A stretch of 64,000 bases of DNA from Candidatus Altimarinota bacterium (GTDB taxonomy: Bacteria > Patescibacteriota > Gracilibacteria > CAIRYL01 > GCA-016699755): NCBI GenBank assembly GCA_963664295.1, contig OY760935.1:896001-960000 (forward strand). The letters run 5' to 3'. Shown one piece after another: positions 3,844-61,576 of the stretch (its first letter is position 1; every line of letters starts with the position of its first letter). Under the pieces are notes generated by a model. It did no database searches. It was not told where the DNA came from and saw only the letters and a program-made list of their open reading frames with translations. The position numbers and the translations under genes were made by a program.

Positions 3844-4398
3844 ATGAGCCCTGAAGAAAAAATTATTCAAAACTGTCAAAATGGCGATCTGGAGCAATTT
3901 TCCAAGCTCTACGATAAATACATAAAAAAAATCTATAATTTTATTTATTTCAAAACACACCATCAAGAAACAGCTGAAGACTTAACAAGCACAACTTTCC
4001 TAAAAGCATTAGAGAACATCAATAAATACAATCCAAAAAAAGGCTCATTTACATCATGGATTTATCAAATAGCACGCAATAATGTAATTGATTTTTATCG
4101 CTCACAAAAAATAACAACTGATATTGAAGATGCCTTTGATTTAAGCGACAAAATCGATATTGCAACTGATACAGATACAAACTTAAAGCTTCAAAAAGTT
4201 AAAAAGTATCTCAAAAAATTAAATTCCACAGAAAGAGAAGTTGTTGTTTTGAAGCTTTGGCAAGACTTATCTCACAAAGAAATTGCAAAAATCATTGGTA
4301 AAAATGAAAAAAATTCAAAAGTAATTCTTTCTCGTGCACTTAAAAAAATCCGAAAAAATGTTTTAATTTCCCTTCTTTTAGTGTTTTTTAGCTCATGA
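3844..4398 (+). CDS. ECF-family RNA polymerase sigma factor
   Basis: AEDLTSTTFLKA, FTSWIYQIARN (region 2), LSHKEIAKIIG (region 4); TGA overlaps next ATG. Confidence 0.93.
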   Translation: MSPEEKIIQNCQNGDLEQFSKLYDKYIKKIYNFIYFKTHHQETAEDLTSTTFLKALENINKYNPKKGSFTSWIYQIARNNVIDFYRSQKITTDIEDAFDLSDKIDIATDTDTNLKLQKVKKYLKKLNSTEREVVVLKLWQDLSHKEIAKIIGKNEKNSKVILSRALKKIRKNVLISLLLVFFSS

Positions 4399-5843
4399 AC
4401 GATAAAATCAAAAAAACCCTGGCAGAAATTTACACTCTTAATCCAGAGCTTAAAAAACATGAAAAAGATTTACTAAAAATAATCAAAGAATTCACTAAAA
4501 ATAAACCAAAAACCAAGTTCACCAAAAAATTTCAAGAAGAATTAAAAGAGCAAATAGAACAAAAAGTCCTTGAAATTAAAGAAAAAAAGGATAACAAAGC
4601 AACATTTAGCCAAATTTTATTTAAAATATTAGCACCAATCACCTACACAGCAGTAGGAGTTGTGCTCACAATTGGAATTTGCCCTTATTTTGACCAAAAA
4701 ACAGAACCAATAAAAGAAACAGAAGCTCAAAAAGAAGAAAAAGTGGAAGCTTTTTCTCGCTCAATAAATATAGAAACAGAAGAATTTGATGACATTGCAT
4801 ATGACGAAACAGAAGTAATCCCAGAAATGGCTGGTTTTGGCGATGGCGGACTGGGTTCAGGTTTTGAAAACTTTAATTTAGTTAGCAACAAAACAAATTC
4901 AGACACCATAGAACCAGCAATGTACCAAGCAAAAGAAATAAAATATACATATAACGAAGACGATATATGGTTACCAAAAGATCCAAATCAAAATATATAT
5001 ATAACAAAAAGTAAATTATCTACAAATTCACCTATTTTAAATATTTTTGCAGATATTCCAGAAATTAATCTTAGTAAATTTACAAACACAACAATTCGTC
5101 ACCTTAGCCTAGCGCAAAATAATCAAAAATTTGGCTATATTATCTCTCTTGATTTTAATTCAGGCATTATTTCTATCAATGAAGATTATGAAAACTGGCC
5201 AAATCCCTTTATAGACTGCGAAGATGAATATTGCTACAAATCTTTACAATTAAAAAAATCAGATATGCCCTCAGAAAGCGAAATAATCACAATTGCTAAT
5301 CAATTTATTAGTGATTATCAAATTGATTTAAATAATTATGGCGAGCCAATTATTGATAACAGCTGGAAGACATATCGCGAAGATTATGCACCGGAAACAA
5401 TCAATATAATTTATCCATTACTAATAAACAACCACTATGTCTATCACCAAAATGGTGCTAATATTGGCATTCAAATAACCATCAATGTACGCTACAAAAA
5501 AGTAGCCTCTGTCTATGGCATAAGAATTGTAAATTTTGATATATACACAAGCAAAAGAGCTGAAAACGCACTAGAGAAAGTGGCAAATGCGCTAAAAAAC
5601 AAAAGAAATAATTATATTGATCCTTATTTGTCTCAAGAAAATATAATAACTGAAGAAGTTGAATTAGTTTCACCAGAATTTTGCTATGTTCTATACAATA
5701 ACTATGAAACACAAAATGAAATTTTTATCCCTGCTATTGCATTCACAGTAAAAAACAAAAAAAACTATATAGATAATAACAAAATTATTGCACCACTTTT
5801 TGAAAATAAAGAAATAATTAACAAAAAAACACTTAAAAACTAG
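4395..5843 (+). CDS. Probable anti-sigma factor, single-pass membrane protein with large extracellular domain
   Basis: ATGA overlap with ECF sigma; ~75-aa N-terminal domain, one TM helix, large C-terminal region. Confidence 0.6.
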   Translation: MNDKIKKTLAEIYTLNPELKKHEKDLLKIIKEFTKNKPKTKFTKKFQEELKEQIEQKVLEIKEKKDNKATFSQILFKILAPITYTAVGVVLTIGICPYFDQKTEPIKETEAQKEEKVEAFSRSINIETEEFDDIAYDETEVIPEMAGFGDGGLGSGFENFNLVSNKTNSDTIEPAMYQAKEIKYTYNEDDIWLPKDPNQNIYITKSKLSTNSPILNIFADIPEINLSKFTNTTIRHLSLAQNNQKFGYIISLDFNSGIISINEDYENWPNPFIDCEDEYCYKSLQLKKSDMPSESEIITIANQFISDYQIDLNNYGEPIIDNSWKTYREDYAPETINIIYPLLINNHYVYHQNGANIGIQITINVRYKKVASVYGIRIVNFDIYTSKRAENALEKVANALKNKRNNYIDPYLSQENIITEEVELVSPEFCYVLYNNYETQNEIFIPAIAFTVKNKKNYIDNNKIIAPLFENKEIINKKTLKN

Positions 5844-6239: not shown

Positions 6240-6275
6240 TCAAGGGCTAGAGACTGCTTAGTGCCTAGCCCTTGA
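6240..6275. terminator. Stem-loop after lipoprotein gene (terminator-like)
   Basis: TCAAGGGCTAG / CTAGCCCTTGA 11-bp inverted repeat; no clear U-tract on + strand. Confidence 0.5.
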
Positions 6276-6306: not shown

Positions 6307-6334
6307 TTGACAAAAAATTTTAATTCTCTATTAT
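6307..6334 (+). promoter_or_regulatory. Sigma70-type promoter for the RSH/PAS operon
   Basis: TTGACA-N16-TATTAT ending 18 nt before ATG 6353. Confidence 0.6.
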
Positions 6335-6352: not shown

Positions 6353-7282
6353 ATGCTAAATTTATTAAAAAACATTTGTGGCAAAAGTCAAATAAACAAG
6401 TGTGAAGAACTTGTTGAAGAATATCTAAGGTTAAAAAAAATAAAAAACCCTATATTGCCAAAAGAAATTATTGAATATTACTCTTTATTTACAAAGAGTA
6501 AGTATTCTTTGGTGACTGCTTTAATATACAACCCTTTAGAAAAAATAAATAAAAATGATTTAAAAAAAATTAAAGAAATTTTTGAAGAACCAGTTTATAA
6601 AAATGTTTTATTGCTAGACTCTCTGCACAAGCAAAAAAATATAAACACTGACAATGTTGATATATTAGCTTTATTTTTGATTGGCTATAAATTTATTTTG
6701 GAAAACAACAAAAAAATTAGCCAAAAAGAAGCTAAATATGCTTTAAAAATACTTGAAAGTACAGATATTTTTAAATTACGTGAGGAACTAGAAGATCAAT
6801 TCTTCTCCATTATTGAACCAGAGATTTTTCAAAAATATGAAGATATTTTATATATAAACAATAGTGCTTATAAAAAATATGAAAACAAAGTTGGTAAAAT
6901 ATTACAAAAAACCATAAAAAACGCAGGTATTAAAGCAAAATTTGAATCAAGAATTAAAACTATCTACAGTACACATCAAAAAATAATCAATAAAAATATA
7001 TTCCTGTCTCAGGTTTTAGATTTAATTGGCTTTCGCGTTATTGTAAAAAACATAAGTGATTGCTATCGAATTATGGAAATTATTCTTTCGCTCGTACCAA
7101 TATTAAACAGTAAAATAAAAGATTACATAGCTCTTCCAAAAGAAAATGGTTATCAAAGTATACATTTAATAGCCCTTTTTGATGATCACCCTGTAGAAAT
7201 ACAAATTAGAACAAACAAAATGCACCACCATGCTCAATACGGCAATGCTGCGCATCGTTTTTACAAAAATTATGAAAAATAA
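6353..7282 (+). CDS. RelA/SpoT-family (p)ppGpp synthetase, N-terminal module only, degenerate HD domain
   Basis: ESRIKTIYS, DLIGFRV, KDYIALPKENGYQSIH, VEIQIRT, AAHRFYK; ends right after the SYNTH domain. Confidence 0.9.
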   Translation: MLNLLKNICGKSQINKCEELVEEYLRLKKIKNPILPKEIIEYYSLFTKSKYSLVTALIYNPLEKINKNDLKKIKEIFEEPVYKNVLLLDSLHKQKNINTDNVDILALFLIGYKFILENNKKISQKEAKYALKILESTDIFKLREELEDQFFSIIEPEIFQKYEDILYINNSAYKKYENKVGKILQKTIKNAGIKAKFESRIKTIYSTHQKIINKNIFLSQVLDLIGFRVIVKNISDCYRIMEIILSLVPILNSKIKDYIALPKENGYQSIHLIALFDDHPVEIQIRTNKMHHHAQYGNAAHRFYKNYEK

Positions 7283-9641
7283 CGATTGGCCACTGCAGGA
7301 AAAAAACTTCAAAGATCTTGTACAAAAAGTGCAAGAGGGTATTTTAATGGTCTCTGGTGATGGTGACTTAATTTATGTAAATCCCTATGCTATAAAAATG
7401 CTAGGCTATAAAAAAAATGAAATAATTAAAAAAAATGCTTGGGATGTAATTTACCCCAATGAAGTTCAAAAAATTAAAAATATTTACAATAGAAGAATTG
7501 AGGGTAAATCAGCACCAAGAAGATATGAAACAATTTTAAAGAAAAAAGATAAAAGCAAACTCTATGTAGAATTTAATGTTATTTTAACTTCATGGGAAAA
7601 TAAAAAAGTGAGCTTAGTTGTTTTTCGCGATATTAGTCAACAAAAAGAAGCAGAAAAAAAAGCAAAAAAAACCACAAAATTTCCACAAGAAAATCCTTTT
7701 CCTGTTATGGAAGTAGCAAAAGACGGCGTGGTTCTTTATGCAAATAGCGTAAGTAAGCCTATTTTGAAAAAATGGAAAACAAAAATGGGTAGTCCTTTAC
7801 CAGAAGAGTGGATAAAAAAAATAAAAAAAATTATTAAAAATAAAAAAAGTGAAGATTTTGAAATTGAAGCGGGAAAATCAACATTTGCCTTAACTTTTAG
7901 CCCTGTTGATAAAGAAAAAATAAATATTTATGGTGCAAATATTACAAAAAGTAAAAACACTGAAAAAACACTAAAAAATACTCTTAAAAAGCTTTCTTCA
8001 TATATCAAAAATATGCCTTTGGGCTATATTGAGTGGGATAAAAATCTAAATATTATTGATTGGAATCCGACAGCAGAAAAAATTTTTAAATATAAAAAAA
8101 CAGAAATAATCAATAAAAATTCATATAATTTACTGTTTCCAGAAAAAAACAAAGATTATGCATATAATTTTTTTAATGCAATTGTTGAGAATAAAAAATC
8201 TAATTCATTCACAGTGGATTGCATCAACAAAGCTGATAAAAATATTTTATGTCAATGGTTCAACACCCCACTAATTGAAAATAATAAAGTTATTGGCATA
8301 ACCTCAATTGTTAGGGATATCACCGAACATAAACAAAAAGAAGAACAATTAAAAGTTCTGTCTTCTGCTATTAAACAAACTGATGAAGGCGTAGTTATTG
8401 TAGATATTGATAACAATGTACTCTTTGCAAATCAGTCTTTTTTGGATATGCATGGGTATCAATCTAAAGAAATCATAAATAAGCATGTGGATATTTTTTA
8501 TCCCCCAATGAACACCAAAGATATTCGCAGAGTAAATAAATTGATTATGAAAAATGGACATTTTTATGAAGAAGCAATAGCTAAACATAAAAATGGAAAA
8601 TTTTTTCCAATTTCGCTCAATATAACACTTTTTTATAATGAAATTGGAACTCCTGTTGGAAAAATAGCAACAATTCGAGATATTACAAAAGAAAAAAAGG
8701 CTAAAGAAGAAAGAAAAGAAAGCGCATTAAAAATAAAAAAATCTAAACAACAATGGGAAAAAACAGTAAATAGTCTTCCTCATGTTATTTTATTGGTTAA
8801 TAAAAACGGTGAAATTTTACAAGCAAATAATGTTCCTGAAAAATGGAACTTGGTAAAAAAGAAAAATATTAAAAGAATGAAAGTTGAAAATGTTTTATGT
8901 CCCAAGGGAAAATGTGATTGTAATGCAAAAAAAATCTGGCTTCAAAAATGGGAAAAGCTAAAAAAAGGCGAAATAATTGATTTTAAAATAGATCACCCAT
9001 ACCTTAAAAAAACTCTTTATTTACAAGCACAGCCTATTGCAGATCACAAGAAATTAGCTAAAGACGACGACTTTGCTGTTGTGGCAATATACGACATAAC
9101 AAAAGAAGAAATGGCTAATAAAAAAATCTTTGATCTCTATAAACATCTTGGTCTTATCAACCGTCGTATATCAATAATTACAGATCTTAATAAGGATGGT
9201 CTTACAAAAGACGAAAAAGAAATTCTTCATAAAATCATTAAATCTGCAAAAGATATTTCACAGGCCGATGCTTGTTTGCTTTATAAATACAACAAACAAG
9301 ATCACCAGCTTTCTTTCTTAATGTCTAGTCGCAAAGTCGTTAATCCAAAACAATTTGAGTTAATTAAAACAGTAAAAATTGATGATTACCCTTCATTAAA
9401 CGAATTATTTACAAAAAAACAAAGAATTCAAGGTTTAAGCAAGGATTATAAAATAGCCAAGCTTGACTTAGAAAATAAAGCAAAAGCTTTTGTTTTATTT
9501 CCCATAATGCAAAAATCTGAGATAGTTGGGGTGCTTTTTCTTGGCTTTAAAAATAAGGATCAAATAACAACTCAAGATTTAAGTTTTTATAACCTTTTTG
9601 TTAATCAAATTAGTTTCTTGCTAGACATGCGATTAAATTAA
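7272..9641 (+). CDS. Multi-PAS plus C-terminal GAF sensor protein with no output domain
   Basis: PAS signatures (IYVNPYAIKMLGY, LYAN, DWNPTAEKIFKY, LFANQSFLDMHGY, ILQANN; RDIS/RDIT/YDIT closers) and a GAF-like end (FPIMQKSEIVGVLFLG). Likely start ATG 7272 overlaps the upstream stop. Confidence 0.85.
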   Translation: MKNNDWPLQEKNFKDLVQKVQEGILMVSGDGDLIYVNPYAIKMLGYKKNEIIKKNAWDVIYPNEVQKIKNIYNRRIEGKSAPRRYETILKKKDKSKLYVEFNVILTSWENKKVSLVVFRDISQQKEAEKKAKKTTKFPQENPFPVMEVAKDGVVLYANSVSKPILKKWKTKMGSPLPEEWIKKIKKIIKNKKSEDFEIEAGKSTFALTFSPVDKEKINIYGANITKSKNTEKTLKNTLKKLSSYIKNMPLGYIEWDKNLNIIDWNPTAEKIFKYKKTEIINKNSYNLLFPEKNKDYAYNFFNAIVENKKSNSFTVDCINKADKNILCQWFNTPLIENNKVIGITSIVRDITEHKQKEEQLKVLSSAIKQTDEGVVIVDIDNNVLFANQSFLDMHGYQSKEIINKHVDIFYPPMNTKDIRRVNKLIMKNGHFYEEAIAKHKNGKFFPISLNITLFYNEIGTPVGKIATIRDITKEKKAKEERKESALKIKKSKQQWEKTVNSLPHVILLVNKNGEILQANNVPEKWNLVKKKNIKRMKVENVLCPKGKCDCNAKKIWLQKWEKLKKGEIIDFKIDHPYLKKTLYLQAQPIADHKKLAKDDDFAVVAIYDITKEEMANKKIFDLYKHLGLINRRISIITDLNKDGLTKDEKEILHKIIKSAKDISQADACLLYKYNKQDHQLSFLMSSRKVVNPKQFELIKTVKIDDYPSLNELFTKKQRIQGLSKDYKIAKLDLENKAKAFVLFPIMQKSEIVGVLFLGFKNKDQITTQDLSFYNLFVNQISFLLDMRLN

Positions 9642-9705
9642 GTTAAACATATTATTGTAATAAATCTATAATTTAATACGCAAAAAATCTCAAAATGTTA
9701 CAAAA

Positions 9706-10446
9706 ATGAAAAAAATTATTTTGTATTTACTTGCTGGTGCTGGATTAATTGGAGTTTCTGTCTTACTTTATTATTTTCATTATTTAATTTTTAATGATCC
9801 TCATCATATTTTTATTTATATGCTGGGCGATATGGCCTTTGTGCCAATTGAGGTCTTAATGGTGACCCTAATTATTGATCGCTTATTGCAAAATCGTGAA
9901 AAAAAATTGATATTACAAAAATTAAATATGGTGATTGGGGTCTTTTTTAGCGAACTTGGCACAGAACTTTTGATATATTTATCTGATTCTGATCCTAATT
10001 TAGACAAAATCAAAAAAGATCTCATCATAACCAACGAATGGACAGAAAAAGAATTTAAAAAAACAGAAAAAAGCCTGAAAAATCGTGAATACAAAATTCA
10101 TATTGAAAAAATTGACTTAGAAAGGCTAGAAAGCTTACTTTTAAATAAAAGAAGGCTTTTGATTAAAATCCTTGAAAATCCAATCTTATTAGAACATGAA
10201 AGTTTTACTGAACTTTTGAAATCTGTTTTTCATTTACAAGAAGAACTTTCTGCACGCAGGCAACTCAATGAATTAAATACAGCTGACAAAACACACTTAA
10301 AGGGTGATATTGAAAGGGTTTATGGGCACTTGGTTTTTGAATGGATTGAATACATGAAGCATTTAAAAAATGAATATCCTTACTTGTTTTCTTTTGCCAT
10401 GCGCACTAATCCATTTGATGAAACTGCAGAAATTGAATTTAAATAA
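9706..10446 (+). CDS. Membrane protein of unknown function (two N-terminal TM helices)
   Basis: 246-aa ORF with hydrophobic N-terminus and soluble C-terminal domain. Confidence 0.7.
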   Translation: MKKIILYLLAGAGLIGVSVLLYYFHYLIFNDPHHIFIYMLGDMAFVPIEVLMVTLIIDRLLQNREKKLILQKLNMVIGVFFSELGTELLIYLSDSDPNLDKIKKDLIITNEWTEKEFKKTEKSLKNREYKIHIEKIDLERLESLLLNKRRLLIKILENPILLEHESFTELLKSVFHLQEELSARRQLNELNTADKTHLKGDIERVYGHLVFEWIEYMKHLKNEYPYLFSFAMRTNPFDETAEIEFK

Positions 10447-10447
10447 A

Positions 10448-10477
10448 CAAAAAGAGCGCCAATTGGCGCTCTTTTTG
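10448..10477. terminator. Bidirectional terminator
   Basis: Perfect palindrome CAAAAAGAGCGCCAATTGGCGCTCTTTTTG between convergent genes. Confidence 0.9.
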
Positions 10478-10505
10478 CGGTTTAATTTAATATTTCAGGC
10501 TGTAA

Positions 10506-59865: not shown

Positions 59866-60457
59866 TACGCTTTTTAATAATTTTTGCAGGAACACCAACA
59901 GCTACAGAAAAAGGTGGAATATCTTTATTCACCACAGCATTCGCCCCAATAACACTTCCTTTGCCAATTTTTACGCCACTGATAATGGTGACACCAGCAC
60001 CAATCCAACAACCATCTTCAATAATTGTTTTACCTGTTTTTTTAAGTGGCTTTTTCCCTAGCAAATCACTATTGTCTGGCATTTCATGGTTTACAACAAC
60101 TCTGGCATGCGTAGCAATAGCGACACTCTCGCCAATTTCCAAGCCACCATGTCCATCCAAAATACAATAAGGGTTCACAGTGCTATCTTTGCCTATTTTT
60201 ATGTATTCACCACGAGTATTTAGAACACATCCTTGATTTATGTGTACATTTTTTCCAATTTCTATGCCAATTTTATAACTAGAAAATGCTTTCAAAATAC
60301 TACCTTCAATAATTACTCCCTTATAAATTTTGATTTTCCAAAAAGCATATAATTTTGACTTAACATCAATATAAGCAAGACTAAATAAGCTCAAAAAAGG
60401 ATTGAGCACAAAAGAAGGAATTGCTTTATTAAGAAAAAATTTAATTTTTTTAAGCAT
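59855..60457 (-). CDS. Hexapeptide-repeat acyltransferase
   Basis: IEDGCWIGAGVTIISGVKIGKGSVIGANAVV..VGVPAK. Confidence 0.92.
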   Translation of the reverse strand: MLKKIKFFLNKAIPSFVLNPFLSLFSLAYIDVKSKLYAFWKIKIYKGVIIEGSILKAFSSYKIGIEIGKNVHINQGCVLNTRGEYIKIGKDSTVNPYCILDGHGGLEIGESVAIATHARVVVNHEMPDNSDLLGKKPLKKTGKTIIEDGCWIGAGVTIISGVKIGKGSVIGANAVVNKDIPPFSVAVGVPAKIIKKRNEK

Positions 60458-60460
60458 TTT

Positions 60461-61576
60461 TTAAAATAATTTACTAAATTTTTTGGCAAGTTCCCGCCAG
60501 CTCATTTTTTCTGCTTTTTGGCGTGAATTTTTTCCCATTGTAAGGATTTTTTGTGGATTTTTCAAAAATTCTTTTATTTTTTTAGATAATTCATCTGCAC
60601 TTTCTATGCCAACAATAAATCCATTTTCTTTGTCTTGAACTAGCTCCTTACTACCACCTGTGTCACTCACAACACAAGGTAAACCTGATGCCATGCCTTC
60701 CAAAACCGCATTGCTCATGCCTTCATTTTTTGAAGACAAAACAAAAATATCTGCTTTTGCATATTTTTTTGCTATTTTTTGCTTATTTTTAATTATTCCG
60801 GTTAGATCCAAGTCTACTTTTAATTTTTTTGCCAAATTTATTAAATTTTCTTTTTCTGGTCCATCGCCAATAATTTGCACAATTACATCAAGACCTTCAC
60901 AAGCTTGAATTAAAAGTGAAAAATTTTTACGCTCAACCAACCTGCCAACAGAAATAATGATTGGTTTTTTGTTCTTTTTTTCTAGATCAGGCTTAAAAAA
61001 ATCAGTATCTACGCCGTTATAAATTAAGCCAATTTCTTGTTTTGGCGCTGTCTTGTGTGCCAACTCTCGCAAACCATCAGAATTAGCAATGACTTGCTTG
61101 GCATTTTTCCAAATAATTGGTGAAAGCCAAGAAAAAATAAATTTATCCAACTTTTGCCAGCGTTTTTCATAAAAAGGCACATCTGAACCGCGCAAAAGCA
61201 CAATATAGGGCACTTTATATAATTTATTTAAAGCATATCCCAAAAAACCAGCGGGCAAACCACTCCAGCACAAAATTCCATCATATTTTTTTTGCTTAAT
61301 TAATTTTCGTGATTGAAAAAAGGCTTTCCAACTATATTTAATTAAGTCAAAAATAGTCTGGAAATGAATATTTTTGCCTTTTTTGCTAATATCCAAATAA
61401 TAAATTTCACTATTTTTATTAAATTTTTCCTGTTTTTTTTGATTTTCCGACGCAGTCACGAGATCAATTTGTAAATCAGGATAGGCTTCTAGCTCTTTGA
61501 GTGCAAAAAAATTAGCATTAGCCTGCCCCCCGCCCAAGGGCGGAAACTCATTGTTTAGCATTAAAATCTTTTTCAT
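60461..61576 (-). CDS. GT4 glycosyltransferase
   Basis: NEFPPLGGG, YNGVD, VGRLVERK, EGMSNAVLEGMASG. Confidence 0.93.
   Translation of the reverse strand: MKKILMLNNEFPPLGGGQANANFFALKELEAYPDLQIDLVTASENQKKQEKFNKNSEIYYLDISKKGKNIHFQTIFDLIKYSWKAFFQSRKLIKQKKYDGILCWSGLPAGFLGYALNKLYKVPYIVLLRGSDVPFYEKRWQKLDKFIFSWLSPIIWKNAKQVIANSDGLRELAHKTAPKQEIGLIYNGVDTDFFKPDLEKKNKKPIIISVGRLVERKNFSLLIQACEGLDVIVQIIGDGPEKENLINLAKKLKVDLDLTGIIKNKQKIAKKYAKADIFVLSSKNEGMSNAVLEGMASGLPCVVSDTGGSKELVQDKENGFIVGIESADELSKKIKEFLKNPQKILTMGKNSRQKAEKMSWRELAKKFSKLF

Follow-up and report, generated by a model that had tools for sequence, protein, structure and literature searches.

What does an alarmone synthetase without a working hydrolase do when its gene overlaps that of a large sensor protein, which itself ends without any output domain? 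This question is raised by a locus in Candidatus Altimarinota bacterium (class Gracilibacteria), whose genome is a single contig of 1.215 Mb, 100% complete (OY760935.1; assembly GCA_963664295.1). We analysed a stretch of 64,000 nucleotides of this contig (positions 896,001 to 960,000), referred to as the window and used for all coordinates below unless stated otherwise. In it, the gene of a short RelA/SpoT homologue (RSH; 6353-7282, plus strand, 309 amino acids (aa)) overlaps by 11 nucleotides (nt), exactly as proposed in an initial annotation of this DNA, with a sensor gene (7272-9641, plus strand, 789 aa). The enzyme-sensor pair is real, conserved and apparently undescribed, and we consider the chances about even that in this two-gene unit the sensor binds the enzyme via a terminal helix-GAF module and gates the synthesis of guanosine tetra- and pentaphosphate, (p)ppGpp, in trans. 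The parts of the locus are:

6307-6334, plus strand: candidate promoter of the unit, sigma-70-like (11/12 consensus, 16-nt spacer; consensus match only)
6353-7282, plus strand: short RSH of type I, 309 aa, with pseudo-hydrolase, linker and intact synthetase, without TGS, zinc-finger (ZFD) or ACT/RRM domains
6458-6763, plus strand: pseudo-hydrolase region, about aa 36-137, predicted HD fold with the catalytic residues gone
6947-7276, plus strand: synthetase domain, aa 199-308, all catalytic motifs present
7272-9641, plus strand: output-less PAS/GAF sensor, 789 aa, 11-nt overlap with the enzyme gene
7302-8690, plus strand: sensor input region, clear PAS domains at about aa 11-124, 244-353 and 365-473
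8760-9101, plus strand: PAS-like domain in degenerate form, about aa 497-610 (weak, with 15.7 bits here and 22 bits for the homologue P0127)
9117-9638, plus strand: terminal module of long helix, GAF fold and last helix, family-defining, with a putative partner-binding role
9644-9672, plus strand: promoter-like site before the next gene (10/12 consensus match)

The enzyme carries RelA_SpoT (PF04607) at aa 199-308 (E 4e-32, 111 bits), and the domain scan yielded no HD_4, TGS or ACT match, in agreement with the earlier statement that the protein ends before TGS and ACT. In the alignment, Y59-N60 occupy the position of the hydrolase His-Asp pair, which is retained in none of 29 family members, and the remaining hydrolase residues of the family, here termed type I, are likewise lost; the HD column of the long-Rel set used for comparison is not independent, since this set was selected on the HD dipeptide. 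The synthetase residues R200, K202, K210, D223, R228, Y267, E282, Q284, R286 and H301 are retained in 30 of 30 sequences. The initial annotation was thus right about the replaced HD motif as well as the complete set of synthetase motifs, but its term 'fragment' has to be abandoned: 28 homologues, counted among the best 120 of 530 protein matches (3952 candidates), form a tight group (E<=1.2e-43, 296-321 aa, RelA_SpoT as the only domain), which is followed by a gap to the ordinary Rels. Type I is a stable family whose hydrolase is dead and whose synthetase, judging from its residues, is probably active. An AlphaFold2 model of the enzyme (predicted local distance difference test, pLDDT, 87) matches, along its entire chain, the Rel N-terminal regions 7OIW and 8ACU with template modelling (TM) scores of 0.71-0.75. 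A sequence search of the PDB (E<=0.01, 21 matches) ranked long Rels best with 8ACU at the top, which was also second in the fold search, and the structures of the toxic small alarmone synthetases (toxSAS) FaRel2, CapRel and Tas1 are absent from these 21 matches. Having neither an active HD nor C-terminal domains, the enzyme falls among the small alarmone synthetases (SAS), but differs from the single-domain members in having kept a pseudo-HD fold. Atlas searches with the homologues led to generic GAF and generic RSH clusters, and contigs from sequencing runs matched the enzyme gene and the junction as short pieces only.

The sensor had been described as bearing about five PAS domains, three of which are clear (Pfam; 75-86 bits), while the rest of this count is less firm: the fourth (aa 497-566) reaches 15.7 bits, against at most 3.1 in shuffles, and a fifth, poorly recognisable slot, located between the first and second clear domains of the input region, gave no more than a weak signal of 9.7 bits, which came from the homologue P0127. 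The GAF domain spans aa 646-785 and the protein stops a few residues later, so that the initial annotation correctly saw no kinase, GGDEF or EAL domain. This ending is a family trait. A profile search with the sensor gave 626 representatives at E<=1e-10, some of them fragments; the best 150 were examined, which together with other searches makes 158 proteins. Helix and GAF are present in 137 of these, 136 of which end no more than 40 residues past the module and one at 44, the remaining 21 being for the most part generic poly-GAF proteins; none of the 158 contains a synthetase domain. Likewise, 53 sensors read from genome DNA end 0-56 residues past the module. PAS, GAF, MASE3 and HAMP were found as inputs when 30 family members were scanned with Pfam, and output domains (HisKA/HATPase, GGDEF, EAL, HD-GYP) occurred in 0/12 orthologous sensors and 0/30 scanned family members, which answers the proposed check for kinase or cyclase domains in orthologues. 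A phylum search with the sensor alignment returned mostly generic PAS matches, and six matches outside this genome reached the terminal module. Other explanations of the missing output were rejected: a split sensor kinase, because the sole HisKA and the sole response regulator of the genome lie ~55 kb off and neither has a PAS_9 match, as well as a frameshifted kinase and a recent truncation.

The terminal module was modelled as a 44-residue helix followed by the GAF (pLDDT 92). The long helix is its most conserved part (0.63), with Y623, L626, G627, N630 and R631 present in 90-99%, and the surroundings of the GAF pocket are the least conserved (0.32); the last helix carries the conserved residues Q768, E/D769 and F772. 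The constant end, the variable input and the conserved helix surface together suggest that the module is an output acting by protein contact. Its top fold match is the GAF domain of PtsP at 16% identity, close to many other GAFs, and the matches include nucleotide-binding GAFs, namely the cAMP-bound GAF of Lcd1 and those of phosphodiesterases (PDE).

Beyond what had been noted before, the same genome harbours a second, distinct pair. It encodes three RSH synthetases: a Rel of 714 aa with intact HD, which is the separate full-length enzyme whose presence the initial annotation had suggested checking, the 309-aa type I enzyme and a type II enzyme of 381 aa. The type II pair is located outside the window (G000:C1:483699-486375; L028:5700-8376). 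Its enzyme consists of synthetase and TGS without HD, the TGS being the sole C-terminal Rel domain retained, and overlaps a PAS-PAS-PAS-GAF protein of 524 aa without output domain; over their final 190 residues, the type I and type II sensors are homologous. All 14 of 14 type II enzymes have kept the His of the TGS motif DFAYxIHT, a residue with a role in tRNA binding. All six PAS_9 matches of the genome fall within the two enzyme-adjacent sensors, and the domain scan of the genome counted no GGDEF, no EAL, one HisKA and one response regulator. Two stand-alone HD_4 proteins (230 aa, 846956-847648; 184 aa, 60323-60877; both G000:C1) carry His-Asp motifs, so the cell is likely able to remove the alarmone. 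The gene of the 184-aa protein directly follows grpE and is near hrcA.

Are enzyme and sensor kept together in other genomes? Among 401 genomes of the class, type I was found in four (E<=1e-60) and type II in 14 (E<=3e-144), with the sensor adjacent in 4/4 and 14/14 cases, respectively, and a further, diverged type II pair is present in G641 (genetic code table 25). The check for linkage in relatives therefore came out positively, as 19 of 21 short enzymes of both clades adjoin a sensor, a count that diverged type I members scoring under the cut-off may have escaped. In the phylum sample, type I occurs in one of 401 genomes, this one only. All 19 pairs are co-oriented and overlap or are separated by a gap of at most 29 nt; since the gene order is flipped in G036 and the flanks differ among type I loci, the pair is kept as a unit. 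Ordinary Rel loci served as negative control and contained the terminal module in 0/160 cases (one weak internal GAF match), and at 53 other RSH loci of the class, many of 3-4 kb only, it was found solely at a divergent locus in G032. There (L268:3301-6090; G032:C10), an RSH of 459 aa lies 54 nt from the divergently oriented gene of a membrane HAMP-PAS sensor whose terminal module is of a distant form, which is possibly a third pairing. When reading frames were tested for overlap, the three type I pairs already known came out again and two more could be inferred, P0010/P0175 (overlap of 15 codons) and P0011/P0169 (11 codons), the best of 210 controls reaching 4 codons; the enzymes of both added pairs group with an enzyme labelled Paceibacterota, suggesting that the pairing extends beyond the class.

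Phylogenetic trees, which were quick and based on about 200 columns, recovered type I and type II enzymes each as a single group (97-100 in the Shimodaira-Hasegawa-like approximate likelihood ratio test, SH-aLRT). The two are not sisters in free trees, but a single origin is not rejected (approximately unbiased (AU) test, p 0.59). The sensors form two clades (100), one of them including the four type I partners, and 15 type II partners belong to a 19-member subclade (96) of the other. The partners of enzyme clade I thus come from sensor clade I and those of enzyme clade II from the subclade of sensor clade II, which supports the proposed unit.

Two further observations concern other members of the RSH family. 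Paralogues of 760-1150 aa in Gracilibacteria (L250-L257 and L259, in G041, G036, G053, G017, G034, G008, G056, G016 and G010) combine a diverged synthetase with hydrophobic, membrane-like C-termini and group together in the tree. P0331 is a 682-aa Rel in which HD, synthetase and TGS are followed by CheW and a receiver domain (precomputed Pfam); it stems from a 3.6-kb contig and may be a chimera.

Should the sensor indeed gate the enzyme, both proteins would be produced from one transcript and form a complex, and a cue sensed by the PAS array would move the long helix and alter the state of the enzyme. The latter would make (p)ppGpp, as the closeness of its synthetase to long Rels suggests, and the housekeeping Rel together with the two small hydrolases would remove it. 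With respect to the sign of the regulation, we lean slightly towards a brake released by the signal over an activation as in DarB, since no restraint is left inside the enzyme, which has no hydrolase, and since RSH enzymes truncated at the C-terminus tend to be constitutive.

Several findings weigh against a sensor dedicated to its neighbouring enzyme. The 44 genomes of the class with sensors contain 47 of them: 19 are co-oriented with a short enzyme, one is divergent from the RSH of 459 aa, and 27 are without a synthetase in the DNA examined (three with less than 1.4 kb upstream). Sensors from other classes were without an adjacent synthetase in all six cases examined, and each of five lone-sensor genomes tested encodes a single RSH, its frame measuring 502-794 aa and never of the short type. 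These lone sensors are the main unexplained fact, and may act either on the single Rel of the genome or on another target. Conversely, the 14-17 kb examined at two diverged enzymes derived from the family, those of G022 and G337, contain no sensor. A fused enzyme-sensor protein was found neither among the best 120 longer matches, which is weak evidence, nor among the 158 proteins of the sensor searches. The linkage counts are not independent events because the genomes are related, and the match of the invariant type I residue Y238 with the Tyr279 of Rel that is critical for DarB does not discriminate, since long Rels share the Tyr and type II has Phe. The suggestion of the initial annotation that the sensor replaces the lost C-terminus of the enzyme is consequently tenable as far as the linkage goes, but the sensor is not simply the missing C-terminus, because its family is wider than the pairing. 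Among the lone sensors, those of family f77 (L399-L403) have an N-terminal domain of unrecognised type ahead of PAS and the terminal module, and their genes lie, in conserved position, directly upstream of a gene which we call RNase HII-like on the basis of its motif.

One way to accommodate the lone sensors, which we put forward tentatively and regard as rather doubtful, is that the helix-GAF is a general Rel-docking module, by which more than 100 output-less sensors of Patescibacteria would feed their inputs into (p)ppGpp synthesis, acting either on adjacent, insulated short enzymes (two channels in this genome) or, in the case of lone sensors, on the housekeeping Rel. Another explanation holds that the sensor has a different target, whether some other protein or the methyltransferase-like/glutamine amidotransferase (GATase) protein of clade II, and that the enzyme is merely co-transcribed for a shared response without being bound. 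The gene of this protein flanks 16 loci of sensor clade II, five of them without enzyme; as a neighbour conserved even where the enzyme is absent, it is a rival partner and counts against our proposal, as do the enzyme-less majority of sensors and the existence of enzymes standing alone. The protein itself (loci L032:9615-13469, L301:5773-8508, L311:1752-5069 and 13 more, L311 having no enzyme beside the sensor) comprises up to 1550 aa, evolves fast, is split in some loci, ends in a C-terminal class I GATase and is mostly encoded convergently. Its gene, however, has no tblastn match in the genome studied here and is missing at every type I locus, and in each of two distinct enzyme clades the enzyme gene overlaps or nearly touches that of a sensor from the matching clade, for which reasons we consider a different target unlikely.

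The flow of information could also be reversed, the terminal GAF being the alarmone receptor and the sensor a downstream effector, so that lone sensors would read the alarmone of the housekeeping Rel. Such a role would account for them without protein contact and would fit the nucleotide-binding GAFs of Lcd1 and PDEs among the fold matches, but the region around the pocket side is the least conserved of the module, the sensor has no output domain to act through, and the enzyme would be left unregulated; we therefore rate it as quite unlikely. Less probable again is a toxSAS-like toxin-antitoxin or anti-phage module, with the enzyme as toxin and the sensor as an antitoxin detecting infection. 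The comparison with toxSAS, already drawn in the initial annotation, holds only for the two-gene layout, which is overlapping as in the toxSAS loci (PMC7229694). Also in favour of such a module are the patchy spread across families, the fact that the enzyme is seldom alone, and the low GC of both genes, which rank among 549 long open reading frames in the lowest 1% and 4%. Nevertheless, the synthetase is nearest to long Rel, with the toxSAS structures missing among its 21 PDB matches; 48 viral loci contained no family-level member (a scan swamped by ordinary Rel); the sole PADLOC match is a partial one to PDC-S33 (146/349 profile positions); and metabolic-type inputs as well as the many lone sensors suit signalling better. 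That a rel and a sensor kinase, both cut short, persist here as decayed remnants and chance neighbours is hardly credible, for although each protein is without domains of its usual relatives, the narrow length range of the 28 homologues, the common end point of 136/137 sensors, the recurrence of the pair in 19 loci and the synthetase motifs in 30/30 mean that lengths and linkage are conserved, which refutes decay.

With gating of the enzyme by the sensor as the preferred explanation, how does the pair compare to known systems? RelA, which carries a dead HD domain, is a monofunctional synthetase as well, but the enzyme described here has no C-terminal ribosome-sensing region. RelP and RelQ have the synthetase core in common with it, but not its HD-like N-terminal domain (TM about 0.35 by query). 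In the Ca2+-activated RSH of plants, an EF-hand is fused to the catalytic region. There, too, a sensory module replaces the usual regulatory C-terminus, but in cis, with Ca2+ as input and in eukaryotes. In the nitrogen-related phosphotransferase system (PTS-Ntr) of alphaproteobacteria, a metabolic cue sensed by a GAF domain is relayed to (p)ppGpp by a protein acting in trans; this is a phosphorelay ending on a long Rel (PMC6606846), whereas the sensor here is without a phosphotransfer domain.

The closest functional parallel is DarB, which binds the synthetase domain of Bacillus subtilis Rel, stimulates it and needs Y279 for this (PMC9848473, PMC7900238). DarB is a sensor-only protein that, bound to the N-terminal region of Rel, controls (p)ppGpp synthesis in trans and independently of the ribosome (PDB 8ACU), and we propose such binding and control for the sensor of the pair as well. 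In contrast, DarB is a CBS-domain receptor of c-di-AMP acting on a housekeeping bifunctional Rel, whereas the sensor of Gracilibacteria is built of PAS/GAF domains with swappable inputs, has no tandem CBS and sits beside a dedicated, hydrolase-dead enzyme. The toxSAS (FaRel, FaRel2, PhRel, PhRel2, CapRel) resemble the pair as synthetase-only RSH encoded in conserved, often overlapping two-gene units (PMC7229694, PMC11782079). They differ from it in that the enzyme here has a pseudo-HD and a long-Rel-like synthetase, and in that its partner is a sensor of 417-1127 aa and not Tis1, pZFD or a hydrolase antitoxin. By this analysis, the pair would work like DarB-Rel and is laid out like toxSAS, and appears to belong to neither by the defining tests that were run. 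As far as the accessible part of PMC7229694 goes, 30 subfamilies of small alarmone synthetases are named, the rows listed in its genome table include no Peregrinibacteria or Gracilibacteria and one member of the Saccharibacteria, and PAS proteins appear there as scattered neighbours of RelP, CapRel and RelV only. No description of the pair was found in the literature searched for the module and its enzyme families, a search that left most subscription journals outside.

The sigma-70 promoter postulated upstream of the two genes corresponds to an 11/12 match at 6307-6334, the best of 21 promoter-like sites, but the number of sites does not exceed that in shuffles (mean 25.5), so it is to be regarded as a consensus match only. 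An alternative sensor start at ATG 7230 would give 803 aa; the nearest homologue, P0127, begins in register with 7272. Another gene starts 64 nt past the end of the sensor, and the promoter-like site at 9644-9672 likely marks, as judged from its consensus, the end of the unit. This next gene (9706-10446) encodes a membrane-anchored protein of 246 aa, has a promoter-like site to itself and is followed by a strong terminator acting in both directions (10447-10478); the protein has no Pfam or NCBIfam match and is not a conserved neighbour of other sensors. In front of the promoter candidate, in the gap that follows the upstream lipoprotein gene, lies a perfect inverted repeat of 10 bp around a loop of 14 nt (6241-6274), which the terminator scan did not call. 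Further upstream (3844-5843), the gene of an extracytoplasmic function (ECF)-type sigma factor overlaps that of a 482-aa single-pass membrane protein, likely its anti-sigma factor, and in L027 a short RSH has a similar arrangement at a distance of ~6 kb.

The control of (p)ppGpp known so far is exerted by the ribosome, by a few dedicated proteins acting on the housekeeping Rel, or by antitoxins. If the proposed gating is true, a modular family of sensors with dedicated synthetases would constitute a new layer of this control and would answer the question of how genome-reduced, host-dependent bacteria of the candidate phyla radiation (CPR) couple their surroundings to growth arrest; in the 1.2-Mb genome investigated here, the detected PAS domains are all located beside an alarmone synthetase. 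A switchable module leading from PAS to ppGpp would also serve as a tool. If, beyond that, the helix-GAF were a general Rel-docking module, these sensors would represent a class of split one-component signalling systems with alarmone output and the main sensory route of these minimal cells.

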